Below are positions 1-11,367 of a DNA stretch of 11,569 nt, one piece after another; position 1 is the first letter of the stretch; each line of letters opens with the position of its first letter. A model generated the notes under the pieces. That model was not told the origin of the DNA and did not search any database. It saw nothing but the letters and a program-made list of their open reading frames with translations. Both the position numbers and the translations under genes were made by a program. Where the stretch lies: IMG/VR virus record IMGVR_UViG_2671180283_000020. The stretch is one strand, 5' to 3'. Source of the stretch: a virus (Duplodnaviria > Heunggongvirae > Uroviricota > Caudoviricetes).

Positions 1-356
1 CGGTCGCCTGCGGCAACGGCTTTCCGGCTGATGGTCGTACGGACCTTTTTACCCCGGAGAACACCGGCAAGTCCCATAACCGCCATGAGACGTGCCACTG
101 TACATCTGGCCACCCTGATTCCTTCCCGTAACAACTGACGCCAGACTTTACGCACACCGTACACCTGATGATTTTCATCGTATACGCGCTGTATCTCTCT
201 CTTCAGCCAGTCGTCGTGCTGCGCACGGGCACTGCGTTTATCCGGATGATGTCGCTGTTGCTGACAATGGTAATACGTTGACGGGGCAATATGCAGTTCG
301 CTGCATACCGGTCCGACCCCGTACTGCTCACGCAGCTTATCCAGCAGTGGCATCAT
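1..356 (-). CDS. IS3-family transposase OrfB, N-terminal part only (truncated by window edge); normally made as an OrfAB fusion by -1 frameshifting
   Basis: Reverse-complement translation from 356 gives [79 protein letters not shown]..., which matches my recollection of IS629/IS1203 OrfB. The frame is open to position 1. Confidence 0.85.
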
Positions 357-679
357 TTTTTCCAGAGGCGGTCGAACTCCGCCTTCGCAAAATAAGCGGA
401 AGCCTGGCGAAGGATATCGTTACTGCGGCGCAGTTCACGATTTTCACGTTCCAGCTCTTTCAGACGCTGACGTTCAGCGCTGGTGAGCCCACCATCACCG
501 CCCCCGGTATCCCGCTCATGCTGGCGAACCCAGACACGCAGAGTCTCCGGCGTACAGCCAATCTTTGGGGCAATGGAACAAATTGCCGCCCACTGTGAGT
601 CATATTCATCCTGACTTTCCAGAACCATACGAATCGCCCGCTGACGGACTTCGGGGGAAAAACGAGTATTTTTAGTCAT
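353..679 (-). CDS. IS3-family transposase OrfA (HTH/leucine-zipper subunit), IS629/IS1203-like
   Basis: 108-aa [26 protein letters not shown]...[36 protein letters not shown]. The stop overlaps the orfB ATGATG, and a GAGG Shine-Dalgarno sits upstream of the ATG. Confidence 0.9.
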
Positions 680-2352: not shown

Positions 2353-2405
2353 GGGCGGCAGAGCAGTCACGGAGTAAAACTGATACCGCCAAACGTCACC
2401 AGAAA
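2353..2405 (-). ncRNA. dicF: DicF small RNA (53 nt, ftsZ-targeting sRNA of dicB operons), followed by a T-run at 2348..2352
   Basis: Reverse complement of 2353..2405 is TTTCTGGTGACGTTTGGCGGTATCAGTTTTACTCCGTGACTGCTCTGCCGCCC, matching the DicF sequence as I remember it. It ends in a GC-rich stem plus U-tail and sits upstream of dicB on the same strand, as in Qin. Confidence 0.8.
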
Positions 2406-2681
2406 ATTGATAACAGAGGGCGTTGCAGCGGGGTTGTCACTTAAGCGTATGGTCAACCTGACAACCCGGTGTCCTCAACGGGGGAAGGAATAACCCCGCC
2501 ATACTTACCGCCGCGCCATTTCGCGGGTTGCCACAACCGGAAGCGCACGGTCGAATTAAATTTAACGACACCGTACAGTGAGACGAACTTCGCCGTGCGC
2601 TTTCGTGTTGTGTGCCTGCTTTTAACCACGTCAGGCGAGGTGGTATCCTTCTTATCCCGAATAACCAAGAAGGAAATCTAT

Positions 2682-2882
2682 ATGACTAAAGAAGAATTTG
2701 TCTCTTATATTTTTGATAAAACGGTTGAAATGTATGCCGCTACTTACGGGTCCTGTAATCCTCTGAATAAACCAGAGGGGAAAGATGATTTCGACAAAAT
2801 TTACCGCTTCTTGGAGGACCGCTATATCAAAAGGTTAGAGGACGCAGGGATCAAATCCCCAGTGAAGTCACCATTGTCCTGA
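2682..2882 (+). CDS. Hypothetical 66-aa protein, antisense to the dicB operon leader (uncertain)
   Basis: MTKEEFVSYIFDKTVEMYAATYGSCNPLNKPEGKDDFDKIYRFLEDRYIKRLEDAGIKSPVKSPLS with AAGGA Shine-Dalgarno 7 nt upstream of the ATG at 2682 and a balanced, protein-like composition. Its orientation opposes the surrounding operon and its 3' end overlaps the convergent 125-aa gene. Confidence 0.3.
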   Translation: MTKEEFVSYIFDKTVEMYAATYGSCNPLNKPEGKDDFDKIYRFLEDRYIKRLEDAGIKSPVKSPLS

Positions 2883-3228
2883 GAACTTGCAGGACGTCAT
2901 GATCGTAACTTCCATCCAAACCGCGACGGCAAATTGCTTCTCGTATTACCGGAAGCAGTTCGCTGGAAATCTCGGTGCATATTTCACCTGATAATACGCT
3001 TGGCTCAAGTGAGAATATTGGTGAACTTACGGTCTTGGTCTCGACAGTTTCAGAGTCAGTGCCAACATTATAAAGCTCAACGAAAGCGGTCTTGATTTTC
3101 CGGGCCAGATCTTTTGCTGGCTCGCTTGCAATATCTTTCCCGATTTCTCGCAGCACAGAATGCAATGTATGAGCTGCTGTTTTCTGTACATCAGACGGTA
3201 AATCTTTAAATTCCATCGTCAGCCTCAT
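2851..3228 (-). CDS. Hypothetical prophage protein (125 aa from the ATG at 3228; 121 aa if the ATG at 3216 is used) in the dicB operon
   Basis: The first ATG overlaps the ydfA-like stop as TGATG; a second ATG at 3216 has a GAGG Shine-Dalgarno 6 nt upstream. Sequence MEFKDLPSDVQKTAAHTLHSVLREIGKDIASEP... is acidic and protein-like. No family recognised. Confidence 0.6.
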   Translation of the reverse strand: MRLTMEFKDLPSDVQKTAAHTLHSVLREIGKDIASEPAKDLARKIKTAFVELYNVGTDSETVETKTVSSPIFSLEPSVLSGEICTEISSELLPVIREAICRRGLDGSYDHDVLQVLRTMVTSLGI

Positions 3229-4819: not shown

Positions 4820-5822
4820 AAAGGTGAAAACCGGCAGTTCATCCAGTAAGTCAGTATTGACCTGGCTTGCTGATATGTGCGGTGCCGATTTGTGTGCATA
4901 CCCGTCTGTATCTGCCCTGGCAGAAGTAACGGAACTGAACAAAAAGACAGTGCAGGACAGCTTACGACACCTGATGGAGATTGGGTTAATTGTTGATACC
5001 GGTGAGAGAAAAGGCAGAACAAAGCAAATTGTGGTGTACCGACTTATCGGTGTAGAAGAAAGTGTTGCCGAACCTGAATACACCCAAAAACGGGAGTCTT
5101 TAAAGGTGGGTAAAATTGGTGCTGTTAATAAAAACAGTACCGAAAATGGTTATGTTTCAGCACAAAACAGACCCAAAAACGGAACTCTTAGCTGCATGGA
5201 AAATAACCAAAGACACCCAAATTTTCCATCAAAGACACCCAAAAACGGATCACGGAACCCAAAGGAACCCAAAGTTCTAAACCCCACACATAACGCACGC
5301 GAGAGTGCTCTGACCAGTGAGCAGGAAGTTTTGTCGTTACAGGCAGTATTCCTGGATGGCCTGAGAGAACCCATCGGAAAATTTCTGATGACCGATAGCT
5401 GGCATCCGTCGCGGGATTTTCGACGACGGGCTGCGTTGTGGGGGATGGCTTTGCCGGAGCCGGAATTTACACCTGCTGAACTTGCCGCATTCCGGGATTA
5501 CTGGAGTGATGAGGGGAAAGTGTTTACGCAGATTCAGTGGGAGCAGAAATTCGCCCGTCACGTAAATCACGTCAGGGCGCAGGTTAAACCAGTCAGCAAG
5601 GGGGTGAACCATGCAGCAGCACCAGGGGGCACCGCATCACGGGCAGTTCAGGAAATTCGGGCAGCACGTGAGCAGTGGGAACGTGAAAACGGATTTATCC
5701 GCGACGGAAACGGCGTGGAAGCTGTGGGAACTCATGGGGGAGGTTTATTCGAACCGCTGGACCCAGAAGAACGGGGCCGCACCTTCGAAGCTCTGGATTG
5801 CACAGATTGGTGCGATGACTGA
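4791..5822 (+). CDS. Replication initiator, lambda O-like role: N-terminal HTH replication-protein domain plus C-terminal DnaT-like domain
   Basis: From the ATG at 4791 (AGGGG Shine-Dalgarno 4 nt upstream): MSIDALRWAKKVKTGSSSSKSVLTWLADMCGADLCAYPSVSALAEVTELNKKTVQDSLRHLMEIGLIVDTGERKGRTKQIVVYRLIG... with C-terminal ...FTPAELAAFRDYWSDEGKVFTQIQWEQKFARHVNHV. The last ~70 codons are lower-complexity and overlap the P-like ORF, so the true C-terminus is uncertain. The track start at 4716 is rejected (no Shine-Dalgarno; internal to the YdaT-like gene). Confidence 0.8.
   Translation: MSIDALRWAKKVKTGSSSSKSVLTWLADMCGADLCAYPSVSALAEVTELNKKTVQDSLRHLMEIGLIVDTGERKGRTKQIVVYRLIGVEESVAEPEYTQKRESLKVGKIGAVNKNSTENGYVSAQNRPKNGTLSCMENNQRHPNFPSKTPKNGSRNPKEPKVLNPTHNARESALTSEQEVLSLQAVFLDGLREPIGKFLMTDSWHPSRDFRRRAALWGMALPEPEFTPAELAAFRDYWSDEGKVFTQIQWEQKFARHVNHVRAQVKPVSKGVNHAAAPGGTASRAVQEIRAAREQWERENGFIRDGNGVEAVGTHGGGLFEPLDPEERGRTFEALDCTDWCDD
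5168..5275. repeat. Iteron-like direct repeats (ACCCAAA-containing units, at least five copies) inside the initiator gene linker; candidate phage replication origin
   Basis: cagACCCAAAAACGGAac (5168..5185), AGACACCCAAAtttt (5211..5225), AGACACCCAAAAACGGAtc (5233..5251), GGAACCCAAAG x2 in tandem (5254..5275), preceded by an AT-rich stretch at about 5110..5165. By analogy with lambda, where ori iterons lie inside gene O. Confidence 0.45.
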
Positions 5823-6276
5823 GCAGCAAATCCGACAGGTCTGCCGCCAGTGCATGGACCGCTGCCGGGAGGGTGAAACATGGCCTCCGGACCTGGCTGA
5901 GTTTGTGGCACTGATTTCGGAAAGCGGAGCCAATCCATTCGGTCTGACGGTGGATGCTGTGATGGAGGAGTACCGCCGCTGGCGCAATGAGTCCTGGCGA
6001 TACGACGGAAGTGATAAGTACCCGTGGTCTCAGCCTGTGCTGTATCACATTTGCCTCGAGATGCGTTCAAAGGGGGTTGAGCGCCAGATGACCGAAGGGG
6101 AATTAAAACGGCTTGCAGAACGGCAGCTGACGAAATGGGCAAAGCATGTTAGTAACGGCCTGAGCGTTCCGCCAGTCCGGCGACAACTGGCGGCACCCAA
6201 ACGCCCGTCGGGGCCAACGCCAATTGAGTTGCTGAAACAGGAATATGAACGCCGGAAAGCGGCTGGGCTTGTTTGA
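5611..6276 (+). CDS. Lambda P-like replication protein (helicase loader family)
   Basis: Strong Shine-Dalgarno AAGGGGGTG 6 nt upstream of the ATG at 5611. The C-terminal half (FVALISESGANPFGLTVDAVMEEYRRWRNESWRYDGSDKYPWSQPVLYHICLEMR...TEGELKRLAERQL) resembles lambda P (FVAWCREEA...VYEYCRKRGLYPDAESYPWKSNAHYWL...TDAELRRKAADEL). Alternative start at the ATG 5815, which overlaps the O-like stop as ATGACTGA. Confidence 0.7.
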   Translation: MQQHQGAPHHGQFRKFGQHVSSGNVKTDLSATETAWKLWELMGEVYSNRWTQKNGAAPSKLWIAQIGAMTEQQIRQVCRQCMDRCREGETWPPDLAEFVALISESGANPFGLTVDAVMEEYRRWRNESWRYDGSDKYPWSQPVLYHICLEMRSKGVERQMTEGELKRLAERQLTKWAKHVSNGLSVPPVRRQLAAPKRPSGPTPIELLKQEYERRKAAGLV

Positions 6277-6308
6277 GTTGAGAAGTAATTTTTACCGGGA
6301 GGAAATTT

Positions 6309-6583
6309 ATGGAGACTGTTTTTGACGCACTGAAAGCAATGGGAAAAGCCACATCCATAGAACTTGCTGCGCGCGTGAAGAAGTGCTGAACGAACTATGG
6401 GAACTGAAAAAGGCTGGTTTTGTTGATAAAAGCGCGTACACCTGGCGTGTGGCTGATAACAACGTTCAGCAGGAACAGCCAGCGCAGGCAGAACTGCCGG
6501 AAGAAACCACCACAATGAGTGAAGTTATGCAGCGCATACTGGCATTTTATCAGGGAAATGTTCGATATTTTAGACGTTACTAG
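6309..6583 (+). pseudogene. Small winged-helix-like prophage gene split by a frameshift (rem-position gene): 26-codon N-terminal ORF 6309..6389 and a C-terminal ORF in another frame reaching the stop at 6581..6583
   Basis: GGGAGG Shine-Dalgarno 6 nt upstream of the ATG at 6309. Frame 0 reads [26 protein letters not shown] then stops; the adjacent frame reads (E)[27 protein letters not shown]... from about 6380. The two pieces together look like one small DNA-binding protein. Confidence 0.5.
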
Positions 6584-6975
6584 ATTAAAGAGCATTAGTT
6601 CAGATGTGAATTGACATTGTGTGGCACAGGGTTGGGCTAGCGTGGGGGTTTGCTTTGTGTAAGAAACGGATGCTCTGCAAATTACTACTAATGCTTAATG
6701 TTAGTCTGATCTGCTCCCCGATGATTAATACACCGCTATGTTAGTAATGTCTGTAGATCGCTGTGTGTTGCATCCATCGGTTGACCCCACAGTCCAAACC
6801 AGACTGTCAGCTTTGATTCGATTCTATCTACTCAACCTGTCAGGTAATGTCTGAGCTAATACACAGAGTACGGCTATCGCGAACTTTAAGCTAGGTATCT
6901 GATACGCACCGTTCACTTGTTTGTACTTCTTGCACTGACTAGCTATCGTGCGCAGTTATTTATAGGTAATCTCCA

Positions 6976-6984
6976 GTGTATAAT
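6976..6984 (+). promoter_or_regulatory. Candidate -10 element (TATAAT at 6979..6984 with TG immediately upstream) for the 281-aa gene
   Basis: gtgTATAAT about 38 nt upstream of the ATG at 7023, followed by AGGAGG Shine-Dalgarno 6 nt before the ATG. No good -35 hexamer found. Confidence 0.4.
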
Positions 6985-7022
6985 TTTCCAACTTATGGGA
7001 GATTGTAAAACAGGAGGAATAT

Positions 7023-7868
7023 ATGAGGAAAAAATCGTTTGGACGTTGCCCGTTTGATTTCGACGAAGATGTAAAAAAAATAGCCGCGATAAATAAATAT
7101 ATCCATGCGAAATTTGAGAGGCATAAAAATAAAATAGATAACCTAAAGGGGGTGGAACAAAAATTGATGGTTTTACATTACTTTAATGTACTGAATGAAC
7201 TTAGTAATCAGGCTATATTTTCTTTGAGTACCGGAGCCTTTTCAGCATCGGAAGTATTAACTAGAGTTATAATGGAACAGGCTGCCAATCAATTTTATAT
7301 AGCAATTGATGATGGAAAAAATGCACAAGCATTACTCAAGGGTAGTAAGAAATTAGTTCATAGTAATGGGAAACGGTGGCTGGAGTGTTTAAAATCCAAA
7401 GAAATGACTAATCCAGCAGCAGATGAAAGGATTCGTATCGGAAAAGAGCTAACTGATATGTTTAATAGATTGTGGCCAAATACACCTGAATATCCTGGAA
7501 CCAAAAAGCTTTTCGAAGTAATTGGCTGGGAAACACACTATCATGCCTATTACGTCCCTCTTTGTGATTCAATACATACATTCTCTGATGATATGGCAAA
7601 TATAGTATCTCTATATAATGCAATCCAAAGCGATAAAACTACTGCTATCGAACTCACTCTTGCAGTTAAACAAGAAAATAAACGGCTGGCAATTTATAAT
7701 GTCGTAATTGCTATTGGCCTGCGGTGTGAGGCCTTAGTAAATGTATTTAACTCTTTAGGTTATCGAGATATTATAACTGAAATGGCGCCAACAATAGATG
7801 CAGTCAACCAGATTATAATTCGATATGATGATTTCGAACATTCCAGAATTTTTATTGTCAATAATTAA
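7023..7868 (+). CDS. Orphan hypothetical protein (281 aa), AT-rich, predicted largely alpha-helical; candidate defence/abortive-infection cargo gene of unknown family
   Basis: Long ORF in AT-rich DNA with a near-consensus AGGAGG Shine-Dalgarno. No Walker, HNH, HEPN or other motif recognised by eye. Located between the prophage replication module and a decayed integrase plus the Septu operon. Confidence 0.75.
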   Translation: MRKKSFGRCPFDFDEDVKKIAAINKYIHAKFERHKNKIDNLKGVEQKLMVLHYFNVLNELSNQAIFSLSTGAFSASEVLTRVIMEQAANQFYIAIDDGKNAQALLKGSKKLVHSNGKRWLECLKSKEMTNPAADERIRIGKELTDMFNRLWPNTPEYPGTKKLFEVIGWETHYHAYYVPLCDSIHTFSDDMANIVSLYNAIQSDKTTAIELTLAVKQENKRLAIYNVVIAIGLRCEALVNVFNSLGYRDIITEMAPTIDAVNQIIIRYDDFEHSRIFIVNN

Positions 7869-7936
7869 TTGGCAGAATTCGTACATGCACAACAACTAGT
7901 TATAGTTGACCTATTTCGCTCTTGAGAGACAACCAT

Positions 7937-7969
7937 ACTCAAATCTTCCACATTGCAGGAGATTTGAGT
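7937..7969 (+). other. Perfect 10-bp inverted repeat ACTCAAATCT / AGATTTGAGT with a 13-nt loop, immediately upstream of the integrase-remnant ATG
   Basis: Read directly from sequence. The loop/right arm contains GGAG (7957..7960), the Shine-Dalgarno for the ATG at 7970. No U-tract follows, so not a classical terminator. Confidence 0.5.
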
Positions 7970-8490
7970 ATGAATACGTCACCGAGGAACAAAGACAGTA
8001 TCATAGGCCCAAAAAGACCACTTCAGATATCTCATATCTGGGGGCTCCAAATCCGGCTTGAACTGGAAGGTAAAACGCGTGATTTAGCTCGGTTTCAAGC
8101 AGAGCTACGGTGCTGCAACTGAAAAACTGGCAGTCCTATCCAATTTGAGATAACCAAAGGGACAAGAGAAGCTGTTTCTGCATTGATAAAGCTTGGCAAT
8201 TTACGCAGTAAAGACTACTTGTTCCGATCTCGGGTCGGTACTAACCAACACATATCAATCCTGCAATATAACCGAATCTTTCATAGGGGGGAGAAAAGCT
8301 TGGTCTCGAAGATTCGCTTTACAGCACACATTCCATGAGAAGAACAAAACCTTGCCTTGTCTGCAAGAAAACTAAGAATCTCCGGGTGATCCAACTTCCG
8401 TTGGGCCATAAGAAAACGGAAAGCACAGTTCGTTATCTGGGTATAGAAGTTGATGATGCATTAGAGATCTCTGAATCGATCGAAGTCTAA
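7970..8490 (+). pseudogene. Decayed small tyrosine recombinase (integrase catalytic-domain family): in-frame TGA at 8120..8122 and a frame change near 8336
   Basis: Three consecutive segments translate to MNTSPRNKDSIIGPKRPLQISHIWGLQIRLELEGKTRDLARFQAELRCCN* / KTGSPIQFEITKGTREAVSALIKLGNLRSKDYLFRSRVGTNQHISILQYNRIFHRGEKSLVSKIRFTAHIP* / RRTKPCLVCKKTKNLRVIQLPLGHKKTESTVRYLGIEVDDALEISESIEV*. These carry recombinase hallmarks (TRDLA Arg, H-x-x-RRTK, LGH, VRY tyrosine). The last two segments lack any Met, so they are absent from the ORF track. Confidence 0.65.
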
Positions 8491-8902
8491 AGCTGTCAGG
8501 GCTGCAGCAGCAGCCCTGTGCCAAGAGCGTACCAATATATGTCTCAAAAAATTGGGCACAGGTCAATATCAATACCAACAACTCTGATTGTGCTCATGTG
8601 ATTTACTCCTGTAGAAAACGCAGACAGTAAAAATATTTCACTGGCTGCTTCAGACAGGGCGTCCATCATATCATTACATAACAATAGCGGGGCACGATAT
8701 CTAGACATGCAGCAACGATGGACATAGAATGAGTACAATCAAAAGCATGTTTAACTACTTTAATTTAAAAATCTTAGAATCTTAGGTGTAGAGTTCAATA
8801 CTTAGTTACATACCCTTTTGAAAGCATCACAAATCATAACTATGAGCCTGTTAAAGGCATAGGTATTCTTAATTAAGAGCATTTTAATGAGAGAAAAATA
8901 AA

Positions 8903-10276
8903 ATGAAAAGACTATATTATACCCATCATGATAGTCGAACCTTAAAACTTGCTATAGAAGGTGATGTTTCTGATAATGCGAATATTTTTACAGTAATTGT
9001 AGGTAAAAATGGCGTTGGAAAAAGCAGATTGTTATCTCAGATTGCTAAAGACTGTATTCAAGATGTTCATTTCTTGAAAACTTTTAATCCATTATTTGAC
9101 AGAGAAATAACACCAAAGTTAATTGCCGTATCTACCAGCCCATTCGATAAATTCCCTCCAGGGCGTAGGTCATTAAATCACCAAAGGAAAGAAAATAATT
9201 ATCGCTATGTGGGTATGCGTGGAGAAGGCCCCTTCGGCGTATCAAATGCCGTATCCCTTTTATCTTCAGCAGCGAGAGGTTGGCTAGAGAAACTTGCTTA
9301 TTCAGAAAATCCTGCAAATTTACTCGATGTTTTTCATTCTATTGATTTTGAGCCCCATATAGAGTTTGTATTTAAACCAACTTACAACGGACCGGACACT
9401 CCTGACTATAACTTCATTGGTGTATATTCAGATGAGATATTAACGGAAGTTAAGGAGTTATATTTAAAATACAATATAAAAATTGACAGGAAGAATATTG
9501 AGAGTCTCTTAAAGTTAAACTCCGAATCACGTCATGATATTTACGAAGCACTGGTTGAAATTAATCGATTTGAACCTGAACGTAGGGCTGTAACCTTGTC
9601 AGTCGATTTTACCAATGGTGAAACATTGGTTGGCTCGACTTATGCGAATAATTATTTTTCTAGATCAATTCTTAAACTTATGAACGCTGGCTTCATGAGA
9701 TTGATGGATATGCGACTCATAAAAAAAAGCTATGGTCCCATGTCACTTAAACGTGCGAGCTCGGGAGAACAATGTTTATTAGTGATGTTGCTTGGAATTG
9801 CAGGGCATATAACTGATGGTTCTATAATATTAATTGATGAACCGGAAATAAGCTTGCATCCTCGATGGCAGGAAGAGTTTATCATTATGTTAACAAAAGC
9901 ATTTTTAACTTACTCAGGTTGTCAATTCATAATTGCAACTCATTCACCACAAATAATATCCAATTTGCCGAATAAAGGTTGTTATATAACATCTTTGTCG
10001 AAAAGTTATCTTTATAAAGCAAAATACTTTAGCAACCGGTCTGCAGACTATCAACTTGCGGAACTATTTGATGCCCCTGGCATTATGAATGAATACATTG
10101 CCAGGTTAGCTTTCAATTTACTTTCAAAAGTTAAGACTGCTAAGTTAGTAACAGATGATAATTGGCGTGAATTAAAACAACTCCAACTTCTCCTTGAAAA
10201 CGTTAATAGTAATGACCCTATTAATGAACTCGTAAATTCCGTATCTCAGGTGTGTGAAATTTATGCCAAAAATTAA
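8903..10276 (+). CDS. ptuA: Septu-like PtuA: ABC/OLD-type (AAA_15/AAA_21-like) ATPase, 457 aa
   Basis: Walker A VIVGKNGVGKSRLL near the N-terminus, ABC-signature-like SSGEQ, Walker B IILIDEPEISLHP, H-loop IIATHSP. AT-rich gene that overlaps the downstream HNH gene. Confidence 0.8.
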   Translation: MKRLYYTHHDSRTLKLAIEGDVSDNANIFTVIVGKNGVGKSRLLSQIAKDCIQDVHFLKTFNPLFDREITPKLIAVSTSPFDKFPPGRRSLNHQRKENNYRYVGMRGEGPFGVSNAVSLLSSAARGWLEKLAYSENPANLLDVFHSIDFEPHIEFVFKPTYNGPDTPDYNFIGVYSDEILTEVKELYLKYNIKIDRKNIESLLKLNSESRHDIYEALVEINRFEPERRAVTLSVDFTNGETLVGSTYANNYFSRSILKLMNAGFMRLMDMRLIKKSYGPMSLKRASSGEQCLLVMLLGIAGHITDGSIILIDEPEISLHPRWQEEFIIMLTKAFLTYSGCQFIIATHSPQIISNLPNKGCYITSLSKSYLYKAKYFSNRSADYQLAELFDAPGIMNEYIARLAFNLLSKVKTAKLVTDDNWRELKQLQLLLENVNSNDPINELVNSVSQVCEIYAKN

Positions 10277-10898
10277 AAATCCAATTAGATTCAGCGCAGA
10301 GTCATTAGATATTATTGAGAAAAAATTGTCTTCTCCAGATTTTAAGCATACCAACTGGGGAGATGATGATTTGCAAGTTCTCCGTGCAGAAATTAGAAAT
10401 CATTACAGAGAAGAACAAAAGCTAGAATGTGTATATTGTCATGAGCCTATTGGGGTAAGAGCTGCACAAGCTGCTCCTATAGAGCATATTGTGCCAAAAT
10501 CTCAATATCTATGTTTTATTTTTGAACCTAAGAATCTATGTGTAGTATGTCCTGACTGCAATGAATTCAAAGGTAAAAATGAAGTGTTATTTGAACCCGT
10601 AATAAATGGGGGGCGGCGCAAAAACTATCCAACTGCATCTGCATCATTTCGCATCGTTCATCCACATATAGATGATTATGAGATGCATATTATAAAAGCA
10701 AATCGTGTTTATGTGGACAAAACACCTAAAGGGCACTATACCATTGGAATATGTAAACTAAATAGATTTTTTCATTATTTTGGGATGTGTGATGAATTTG
10801 TTAATGATGCAAAAATTGCTGAGGCAAATGAAAATTTTTTCAAAAAAGGTAGTATTACTACTAATGAATTATTGGATGATGACATTCATTTGATTTAA
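10263..10898 (+). CDS. ptuB: Septu-like PtuB: HNH endonuclease, 211 aa from the ATG at 10263 (214 aa if the GTG at 10254 is used)
   Basis: HNH-type motif CVYCHEP...APIEHIVPKSQ...CVVCPDCNEFKGKN...VHPHID (Cys pairs plus His/Asn/His). Overlaps the ptuA 3' end by 14-23 nt, implying one operon. Confidence 0.8.
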   Translation: MPKIKNPIRFSAESLDIIEKKLSSPDFKHTNWGDDDLQVLRAEIRNHYREEQKLECVYCHEPIGVRAAQAAPIEHIVPKSQYLCFIFEPKNLCVVCPDCNEFKGKNEVLFEPVINGGRRKNYPTASASFRIVHPHIDDYEMHIIKANRVYVDKTPKGHYTIGICKLNRFFHYFGMCDEFVNDAKIAEANENFFKKGSITTNELLDDDIHLI

Positions 10899-11007
10899 CT
10901 ATGAATTATTATATTGTAAAGTAATCAGGTAAGATATGTTAGACAGTGAGACTATTGCCTTACAGAATTCATTATTCTTATGGATCGCCTTTCTGACTGA
11001 TTTCATA

Positions 11008-11036
11008 TTGGCGGGGTAACGGGAGTTAAGTAGAAT
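11008..11036 (+). promoter_or_regulatory. Candidate hok mRNA promoter (-35 TTGGCG 11008..11013, 17-bp spacer, -10 TAGAAT 11031..11036)
   Basis: Hexamers read directly. The downstream leader (GCTTGAGGCTATCTGTCTCA...GGCAGATAGAGAAAAGCCCC) resembles the 5' region of plasmid R1 hok mRNA as I recall it. Confidence 0.45.
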
Positions 11037-11094
11037 GGCTGCGGGTGCTTGAGGCTATCTGTCTCAGGCATGAACACCAAAGGCAGATAGAGAA

Positions 11095-11165
11095 AAGCCC
11101 CAGTTAACATTACGCGTCCTGCAAGACGCTTAACATTAATCTGAGGCCAATTTCATGCTAGACAC
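11095..11165 (-). ncRNA. sok: Putative Sok-like antisense RNA (boundaries approximate)
   Basis: Inferred from the minus-strand promoter at 11170..11198 and from the hok/sok paradigm, where Sok is antisense to the mok translation-initiation region. Neither end is clearly defined by a terminator in the sequence. Confidence 0.3.
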
Positions 11166-11169
11166 ATGT

Positions 11170-11198
11170 AGGTTAGCCTCTTACGTGCCGGAAGGCAA
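11170..11198 (-). promoter_or_regulatory. Candidate sok promoter on the minus strand (-35 TTGCCT, 17-bp spacer, -10 TAACCT)
   Basis: Reverse complement of 11193..11198 is TTGCCT and of 11170..11175 is TAACCT. It sits between the upstream ATG at 11155 and the hok ATG, the arrangement I recall for the R1 sok promoter (TTGCGC / TATCCT). Confidence 0.45.
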
Positions 11199-11211
11199 GG
11201 AGAAGCAGGCT

Positions 11212-11367
11212 ATGAAGCAGCAAAAGGCGATGTTAATCGCCCTGATCGTCATCTGTTTAACCGTCATAGTGACGACACTGGTAACGAGGAAAGACCTCTG
11301 CGAGGTACGAATCCGAACCGGCCAGACGGAGGTCGCTGTCTTCACAGCTTACGAACCTGAGGAGTAA
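11212..11367 (+). CDS. hokD: Hok/Gef-family type I toxin (51 aa), HokD/RelF-like
   Basis: MKQQKAMLIALIVICLTVIVTTLVTRKDLCEVRIRTGQTEVAVFTAYEPEE with AAGGAG Shine-Dalgarno 9 nt upstream. Near-identical to recalled HokD (RelF). The track ORF 11155..11367 is an in-frame upstream extension from the mok-equivalent ATG. Confidence 0.85.
   Translation: MKQQKAMLIALIVICLTVIVTTLVTRKDLCEVRIRTGQTEVAVFTAYEPEE

Follow-up and report, generated by a model that had tools for sequence, protein, structure and literature searches.

Gene cargo bounded by short recombination sites is a feature of the pdif modules of Acinetobacter plasmids, in which XerC/XerD sites flank the cargo, and engineered recombinase-mediated cassette exchange makes use of heterospecific lox or FRT sites. 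In prophages, the defence hotspots of P2 and P4 combine conserved flanks with an AT-rich cargo of high variability, in which defence systems, Septu among them, abound (Rousset et al. 2022, PMC9122126). How such defence systems are captured was left open in the limitations section of that work. The present analysis concerns a stretch of 11,569 nucleotides (IMG/VR virus record IMGVR_UViG_2671180283_000020, Caudoviricetes), hereafter the window, that belongs to a Qin/Rac-type lambdoid prophage of Escherichia coli. Between the replication genes and the sok/hokD toxin-antitoxin locus, it carries an AT-rich island (6584-10974) with a DUF5677 gene, the remnant of a 200-aa tyrosine recombinase, here called Int200, and a Septu defence system. 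This island is probably a cargo slot occupied by a decayed cassette array, with its recombinase and short sites of two classes, A and B. A wider proposal, which could equally well prove right or wrong, is that the mobile recombinase and the heterospecific A and B sites form an integron-like system that excises, inserts and exchanges cassettes of one gene or operon, many of them anti-phage, between the hotspots of unrelated elements across Gammaproteobacteria, namely lambdoid and P2-like prophages, SXT/R391-type integrative and conjugative elements, smpB islands and chromosomal defence islands. Unless a strand is given, the genes, sites, hairpins and junctions of the window discussed below lie on the plus strand.

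The initial annotation, made from the sequence alone, had described an AT-rich stretch from about 6584 to 11000 between flanks of E. coli-like composition, and both the sliding GC profile and the values per module confirm it. Sliding GC falls from 0.58 (5400-6200) to 0.32-0.40 (6800-11000) and returns to 0.51 after 11001, a discontinuity interrupted by a bump of 0.44 at 8000-8600 that coincides with the recombinase remnant. The island (6584-10974) has a GC content of 36.7% and the right flank (from 10975) of 50.1%, and no other stretch of equal length in the window is as low. Backbone GC is 48-51%. The replication genes range from 48 to 58% GC, with 47-61% at third codon positions (GC3), the P gene standing at 57.6% and 61%; the cargo genes have 34.8% GC and 27% GC3 (DUF5677), 35.2% and 28% (PtuA), and 33.2% and 21% (PtuB). 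The order read from the sequence, namely a spacer free of open reading frames (ORFs), an orphan gene, an integrase remnant and Septu followed by hok, was also correct, and, in the comparison with sister prophages, the proposed edges deviated by no more than about 90 nt at the left end and 25 nt at the right.

A cargo or defence hotspot between the replication module and hok/sok had been suggested as well, and sister prophages lend it support. When the window was compared with five retrieved loci (L002, L003, L005, L088 and L094), the flanks were conserved and the gene content differed; at least six alternative cargo sets lie between the same flanks. This comparison supports the interval from DUF977 to sok/hok as a true cargo slot of Qin/Rac-type lambdoid prophages. 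For instance, the slot of L002 contains DUF1627, DUF977, a hypothetical gene, DUF7167 and a PP2C phosphatase/Ser-Thr kinase pair, that of L003 a fimbrial remnant and the Paa adhesin, and that of L005 an SDR gene, a WYL regulator, the intact recombinase and two unknown genes. In the same way, the intact recombinase is flanked by two unknown genes in the slot of 181 genomes, strain 042 included, and QueH is the only cargo in 697 genomes, in which the flanks are about 0.8 kb apart; the E. coli genomes of the collection are clonally related, and these counts are not numbers of independent events. The QueH-only count was obtained with an artificial empty-site query. The island of the window itself has identical junctions in all of the approximately 19 genomes that carry it, and the window region is nearly unchanged in about 15-19 complete genomes, among them enteropathogenic E. 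coli (EPEC) E2348/69. Defence-related cargo in the slot comprises two Septu subtypes, LA2681-HEPN and the WYL regulator; bSEFIR and HEC-08 adjoin the recombinase in contigs whose backbone was not placed in the lambdoid slot. Of note, a metagenomic protein of 221 aa (P0126) shares 94% identity with about one third of DUF5677 and contains a QueH domain (PF02677) as well, a hybrid that suggests a recombination joint between two alternative occupants of the slot.

The sites found at cargo boundaries are 24 bp long and fall into two classes, with the same 9-bp palindromic arms and different 6-bp spacers: class A reads GTCCGCTYT-GTGCCA-ARAGCGGAC and class B GTCCGCTYY-TCGCTC-AAAGCGGAC. Scanning of 25 loci (330 kb) yielded 61 sites, while 4.3 were expected and at most 10 were seen in 50 shuffles. 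All but two (59/61) lie on the recombinase strand, in the order A, B, A, B at cargo boundaries, and Int200 always has a B site to its left and an A site to its right. Exact full sites occur in at least 120 viral contigs for each class. A census of 225 site-selected loci of viral contigs, which represents the loci retrieved for the analysis and not a complete database scan, included 102 with markers of the lambdoid slot, 34 with P2 markers and 89 with neither. The spacing from A to B is gene-sized (median 1.5 kb) and that from B to A is 35-37 nt in 54 of 75 cases, which makes a 74-nt composite linker, B-N18-A. The 187 cassettes encode 166 protein clusters, including CBASS, Pycsar, DarTG, ThsB (Thoeris), DRT UG17, PD-T7-1/5, AbiU, HEC-08, PDC candidates, transporters and regulators. 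The cargo also includes bSEFIR, and a second Septu subtype occurs as a clean A...B cassette.

Arrays are hosted by lambdoid slots, by the P2 hotspot between genes G and FI, by integrative and conjugative elements (ICEs) and by chromosomal islands. In many independent contexts and four unrelated element types, homology breaks off inside the 6-7-bp cores. DUF5677, a 326-aa gene and a 449-aa gene recur as cassettes in different arrays. Two chromosomal islands (L095 and L096) share their flanks beside a type II restriction-modification system and differ in their cassettes, the A and B cores containing the switch points. Of the two cargo genes known from the 042-type slot, one is present in the first island and the other in the second. 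In strain 042 itself (L094), these genes encode proteins of 449 aa (5388-6737, minus strand) and 326 aa (8017-8997, plus strand) on either side of the intact recombinase, WP_023147793.1. The two genes, each of which thus also occurs alone as an A...B cassette in an island, have no Pfam, PADLOC or NCBIfam family and are good candidates for new defence genes.

In the Qin prophage of K-12 MG1655 (L007), strong matches to the A site (4979-5008; position weight matrix (PWM) score 32.3) and to the B site (5970-5999; PWM 35.0) lie on either side of a segment with flxA and a portion of ydfV, so that flxA is apparently a cassette of the A/B-site system, in the orientation opposite to hokD. K-12 Qin carries ydfW, flxA, ydfV and relBE between dicC/ydfX and hokD and hence offers no empty-site reference. 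The statement of the initial annotation that the rem-position gene and hokD are close neighbours in Qin is not supported: rem is downstream of hokD. The small frameshifted gene of the window does not stand at a rem position and is a fusion of DUF1627 and DUF977.

In the window, a PWM scan found exactly two A-type sites, both at module boundaries, with scores of 18.0 and 13.7 as compared with a background maximum of 5.3. The lower-scoring one is a decayed class-A site, GTTTGCTTT-GTGTAA-GAAACGGAT (6648-6671), at the left boundary of the cargo slot. It is homologous to the intact A sites located just after DUF977 in L005 (7143-7166) and L094 (3835-3858), and the homology with L005 and with the QueH-type slots ends there. 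The other A site (8510-8532) follows the recombinase, and one of its arms is mutated from GCGGAC to GCGTAC. A decayed class-B-type site with a mutated arm, TGACCTATT-TCGCTC-TTGAGAGAC (7907-7930), lies beside Int200 and aligns with GTCCGCTTT-TCGCTC-ATAAGGGAC of intact units. Locus L027 is a clean counterpart of this arrangement, with the order B, recombinase, A, PtuA/PtuB of the other Septu subtype, B, A.

Both ends of the array have been altered by deletion. On the left, the pseudogene at 6309-6583, annotated in RefSeq as frameshifted or incomplete, joins the 5' part of DUF1627 (to 6455) to the 3' part of DUF977 (from 6515), two backbone genes brought together by an internal deletion of about 0.9 kb. 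Homology with the DUF1627 of L002 and L003 stops at 6455; positions 6518-6562 correspond to the 3' end of the L002 DUF977, and positions 6515-6670 to the DUF977 3' end and the following tail in L005. The break at 6455 is thus an internal deletion fusing two backbone genes rather than the edge of the island, and backbone homology continues through the DUF977 remnant and its tail to about 6645-6671. From 6584 to 7022 there is no credible gene, the mechanically called ORFs being of 41-46 aa only. On the right, backbone homology is back at 10975-10978 in the comparison with recombinase-type and QueH-type relatives, and at 11007-11021 in that with the kinase and Paa types (L002 and L003), whose flanks are 88-98% identical to the window and whose homology is lost at 6455. 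Alignment of the window with L005, L022 and L035 identified positions 10975-11000 as the last 26 nt of an ORF for a small hydrophobic peptide; sister prophages have this ORF intact, and the window junction at 10975 cuts it. This end lacks the terminal B site together with some 250 nt of backbone; B sites lie about 250-270 nt upstream in L005, L035 and L094. The small ORF of L005, L022 and L035 is unannotated and encodes, directly upstream of sok/hok, a peptide of about 29 aa (...LVLKCALAITAVIAIYCLAIVLMDRLSD) that could be another small membrane toxin.

The integrase remnant of the initial annotation is indeed a remnant, but it belongs to a family of 200-aa recombinases tied to the cassette system and is not that of a phage or island integrase. 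The pseudogene (7970-8490), aligned with intact copies in L005 (9074-9676) and L004 (10287-10871), has lost about 75 nt internally, contains frameshifts and a stop codon, and is described in RefSeq as 'frameshifted; internal stop'. Intact Int200 consists of little beyond the tyrosine-recombinase catalytic domain (Pfam Phage_integrase PF00589, 7e-18). The catalytic R...HxxR...H...Y residues are all present in intact homologs, within the motifs KLRGCDL, HSMRRT, LLGH and VRYL, and are kept down to 60% identity. Amino acid identity is 78-97% across Escherichia, Proteus, Providencia, Pantoea, Idiomarina and Cycloclasticus, and the contexts include smpB-integrated islands and SXT/R391-like ICEs as well as the lambdoid slot and the P2 G/FI hotspot. 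The Int200 unit was found in 883 of 5426 complete E. coli genomes (16%), with the match of a flanked query always limited to the unit of about 710 bp; the neighbouring genes are unrelated from context to context on both sides and are often defence genes. All cross-context homology starts at the B-type site (7907-7930) and stops at 8532.

A palindrome with 13-nt perfect arms, detected by repeat search (7934-7972), covers the Shine-Dalgarno sequence and the ATG of Int200. The hairpin pairs the Shine-Dalgarno with an anti-Shine-Dalgarno sequence, and this pairing is conserved in divergent homologs through compensatory changes (5 of 7 pairs). At the other end, a GC hairpin (8497-8518) followed by the class-A core and the cassette-side arm, GTGCCA-AGAGCGTAC, forms the junction to the Septu cassette (8497-8532). 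The hairpin with the motif TGCCA-NNN-GCGGA is found once in every intact unit, 7 nt past the stop codon. The inverted sequences at the two ends of the unit co-vary between recombinase subfamilies, with 19/22 identity between the arms in L042. Four other readings were considered and rejected. K-12 ydfW/intK is not the same recombinase (BLASTP E = 0.4). The hairpin after the recombinase is not an integron-like repeat at distal cargo ends, being single-copy while the repeated units are the A and B sites. The reading of the downstream motif as a sigma-54 promoter was abandoned, the motif not being conserved in divergent homologs. Finally, the unit is not an element of the insertion sequence (IS) type with terminal inverted repeats, the supposed repeats being halves of A and B sites that are also present in recombinase-free linkers.

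Other traces of the recombinase unit were also noticed. The array of 2012EL-2448 (L005) contains between two cargo genes a second, diverged 3' fragment of Int200 (10982-11254; about 71-76% nucleotide identity) with hairpin and A-like site, which indicates that linkers with the recombinase decay where they stand. Positions 6622-6634 of the window, immediately behind the DUF977 remnant, hold an inverted copy (12/13 complementary to 8511-8523) of the CAGCCCTGTGCCA motif that ends the Int200 unit; this copy may be left over from an earlier unit that ended at the slot entrance in the opposite orientation. In marine contigs of SXT/R391-like ICEs (L012-L019), Int200 has an ars operon on one side and mer/cop/cus genes on the other and precedes traF-traH-traG, so the system appears to carry metal-resistance cargo and not just defence.

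The Septu call of the initial annotation was verified by full-length PADLOC matches for both proteins. PtuA, the ABC-type ATPase (8903-10276), matches PDLC00283 (1.2e-165), residues 2-455 aligning to profile positions 3-447 of 448, and also Pfam AAA_21/AAA_15. PtuB, the HNH nuclease (10263-10898, with the RefSeq start), matches PDLC00325 over its full length (1.1e-83) and Pfam HNH (5e-5). The two genes form an operon with a 14-nt overlap between the end of ptuA and the start of ptuB, and upstream, at 8702-8730, there is a promoter-like site. PtuA matches solved structures (PDB 8EE4; retron Ec78/Ec83) in the ATPase signature region only, no PDB sequence match was found for PtuB, and the NCBIfam retron-PtuAB models score the system far below their cut-offs. 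By sequence, the window Septu is a distinct subtype, distant from the characterized ones. Its nearest relatives among species representatives are from Pseudomonas, at no more than 66% identity and without A/B sites, and no donor was identified among them. An intact Septu with its own promoter-like site, as carried by EPEC E2348/69 and about 18 further genomes, should protect the lysogen from superinfecting phages, PtuA acting as the sensing ATPase and PtuB as the executing nuclease, and the system is presumably active in this prophage. Cleavage of tRNA-Tyr was shown for Septu Ec-B88 (PMC13096335); given the distance of the window subtype, this is a lead and not a conclusion.

The second cargo gene (7023-7868) encodes DUF5677 (Pfam PF18928, 3e-9) and is an intact passenger in the present-day prophage. 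Its upstream region (6706-7022), within the ORF-free spacer, contains a perfect -10 element, TATAAT (6979-6984), and matches no Rfam family; it is 85% identical to the corresponding region in a P2-type prophage of strain S88, the match beginning exactly at 6706, right after an intact A site in S88. Copies of the gene that are 88-92% identical were found in the P2 G/FI hotspot of S88, IHE3034 and others. The family is rare, with only 54 representative clusters among 1.8 billion proteins. DUF5677 has no PADLOC or NCBIfam match, a profile search against the PDB was empty, and its AlphaFold model, built from 4 sequences, has a pLDDT (predicted local distance difference test) of only 61. A DUF5677 ORF assayed in Enterococcus was not among the active defences (PMC12632615). 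A search of the island against phages in INPHARED gave only trivial matches.

Taken together, positions 6648-10974 or so would represent a decayed array with the order A' site, DUF5677 cassette, B' site, dead Int200, A site, Septu (ptuA-ptuB) cassette and deleted right end. Its decay and its deletions are seen directly. Intact Int200 would act on A and B sites through the arms GTCCGCTYT and ARAGCGGAC and the spacers GTGCCA and TCGCTC, and cassettes with A on one side and B on the other would be excised, inserted or swapped between arrays through A x A and B x B recombination. Such arrays would sit in the hotspots of lambdoid and P2-like prophages, ICEs and genomic islands. The window array was presumably built by this site-specific exchange, probably catalysed by Int200 and possibly directional, and would then have lost its mobility as recombinase and sites decayed and two deletions occurred; with Int200 a pseudogene, the flanking sites mutated, DUF1627 fused to DUF977 and the terminal B site deleted, the system would be frozen here.

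Several points weigh against the cassette-array interpretation, and part of them would fit ordinary lambdoid mosaicism, in which homologous recombination in the flanks and illegitimate accretion of 'morons' bring in the cargo, the 24-bp palindromes are regulatory elements such as terminators or operators, and the recombinase is an unrelated passenger. The evidence for recombination is comparative, no event, excised circle or reciprocal product having been observed. The right junction at 10975 falls inside a small ORF and off any site, so that end at least arose by illegitimate recombination or deletion, and on the left two genes are simply joined by a deletion. No B sites are recognizable for cargo of the QueH, kinase and Paa types, which indicates that part of the slot turnover is independent of sites. 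The recombinase is absent from most arrays; with only 2 of the 225 site-selected loci carrying it, action in trans would be required. Conservation of the two inner arms is poor in linkers that contain the recombinase. Of the 166 cassette clusters, only 107 have their ORFs in the same orientation as the sites (59 do not), and each cassette seemingly has its own promoter. Finally, the Septu subtype is distant from the characterized ones, so its activity and target are assumed. Mosaicism is nevertheless unlikely, since breakpoints recur inside the short cores in independent contexts and unrelated elements, the sites have a 9-6-9 recombinase-core architecture with two strictly alternating spacer classes, their arms co-vary with the recombinase subfamily and the position of Int200 between a B and an A site is fixed.

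Two further explanations are much less probable still. The island had initially been taken as one insertion, and a single integrative element or satellite that brought in DUF5677, its own integrase and Septu at once, the integrase decaying later, would account for a uniformly AT-rich stretch with a recombinase pseudogene and for the identical junctions of all island genomes. On the contrary, the island is a mosaic of independently distributed modules, as DUF5677 and the recombinase are found in P2 prophages with no Septu beside them, and the lambdoid slot also accommodates the recombinase in the company of other cargo. Moreover, the recombinase is a catalytic domain of 200 aa located in mid-island and not at an end, and a repeat search found no direct att-like repeats flanking the island, all of which makes the single element very improbable. 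A Hin- or Fim-like invertible switch, allowing phase-variable read-through into the left or right cargo, is disfavoured to a comparable degree. Inverted sites do bracket the recombinase gene, the ORF downstream of Int200 is co-oriented in 14 of 18 contexts and there is a weak, sub-threshold similarity to FimB/E-type invertases. However, a synthetic inverted query matched none of 933 genomes, so both orientations were not observed, all 181 contexts of the 042 type are co-linear, and the two sites should not recombine with each other, as their spacers differ. A slot holding a decayed cassette array thus remains the preferred reading.

Around the island, the window comprises from left to right an IS3 fragment, an exonuclease gene, dicB/DicF, a DicA/DicC-like switch, YdaT, a DnaT-like O gene, P, the island and sok/hokD. 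The P gene (5815-6276; Pfam Phage_lambda_P 7e-17; RefSeq annotation in L001) is the last intact replication gene of the backbone. The backbone resumes with the sok/hokD type I toxin-antitoxin locus (11043-11367), in which Rfam places sok at 11043-11217 (117 bits as compared with a gathering score of 59) and hokD is annotated at 11212-11367 (Pfam HOK_GEF 1.3e-23). At the other end, an IS3-family element fills positions 1-733 (Rfam ALIL pseudoknot at 282-398, minus strand, 121 bits); homology with most sister prophages starts only at 734, so the IS has truncated or replaced the exonuclease-proximal region of the prophage. The DicF small RNA (Rfam, 76.7 bits; 2353-2404, minus strand) adjoins dicB, an arrangement shared with K-12 Qin. 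A second small variable patch, where the homology with L002 and L003 is interrupted, lies between dicB/DicF and a DUF1391 gene (from 2624 or 2651 to 3223 approximately); RefSeq annotates in it two hypothetical genes, at about 2682-2882 on the plus strand and about 2851-3216 on the minus strand.

If the preferred reading is true, a cargo hotspot is defined between DUF977 and hok/sok in Qin/Rac-type lambdoid prophages, which are very common in E. coli; it carries Septu in some genomes and, elsewhere, other cargo for defence or virulence, for example the Paa adhesin or the kinase/phosphatase pair. The cassette system would, if real, provide a concrete molecular mechanism for the filling of defence hotspots, sequence-defined and testable, and thereby address the capture and movement of defence systems between hotspots, the question left open in PMC9122126. 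Scanning for sites would delimit cassettes precisely and yield many uncharacterized candidate defence genes, including DUF5677 and the 326-aa and 449-aa genes. Prophage defence hotspots and Septu themselves are already known. No description of the A/B cassette system or of the DUF977-hok/sok hotspot was found in the searchable literature, which did not include Nilsson et al. 2004 (doi 10.1093/molbev/msg223). The title of that paper points to site-specific recombination in P2 variable regions and, with its citation for variable loci of P2-like phages, suggests that recombination-type repeats had been noticed there before.

The cassette system resembles integrons and fails their defining features. 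As in integrons, gene-sized cassettes with diverse cargo are separated by a structured element and associated with a tyrosine recombinase, as seen in the alternating sites, the gene-sized A-to-B intervals and the fixed recombinase position; most arrays lack the recombinase, like CALINs (clusters of attC sites lacking integron integrases). The best NCBIfam match of Int200 is to the XerA/integron integrase model, with 53.9 bits for a cut-off of 220. In contrast to IntI, which has about 320 aa and an additional domain, Int200 lacks the insertion specific to IntI, and attC sites (R''-L''...L'-R' with the core GTTRRRY) are replaced by simple palindromes of 9-6-9 layout in two spacer classes. Int200 is found inside the array linker, whereas the integron recombinase stands at one end with attI and Pc, and A/B cassettes are not consistently co-oriented (107 versus 59) and seem to have their own promoters. 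The window Septu is a full-length PADLOC PtuA and PtuB pair in an overlapping operon with an HNH domain, as in known systems, but shares only the signature region with solved PtuA structures. Like pdif modules and cassette exchange, the cargo is bounded by short sites, of which two non-cross-reacting types would permit a segment swap, and the closest, weak similarity of Int200 is to Xer proteins. Unlike pdif, the A and B sites differ from dif (11-6-11) in sequence and length, a dedicated mobile 200-aa recombinase takes the place of chromosomal XerCD, and the hosts are prophages, ICEs and islands instead of plasmids. Finally, the lambdoid slot shares with the P2 and P4 hotspots the conserved flanks and the variable AT-rich defence cargo, and the DUF5677 and recombinase module of the window is itself found in the P2 hotspot, between the tail-fibre assembly (G) and tail sheath (FI) genes. 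It differs from them in its place, between DUF977 and hok/sok of Qin/Rac-type lambdoid prophages, and in the specific sites and the recombinase that are associated with its boundaries.

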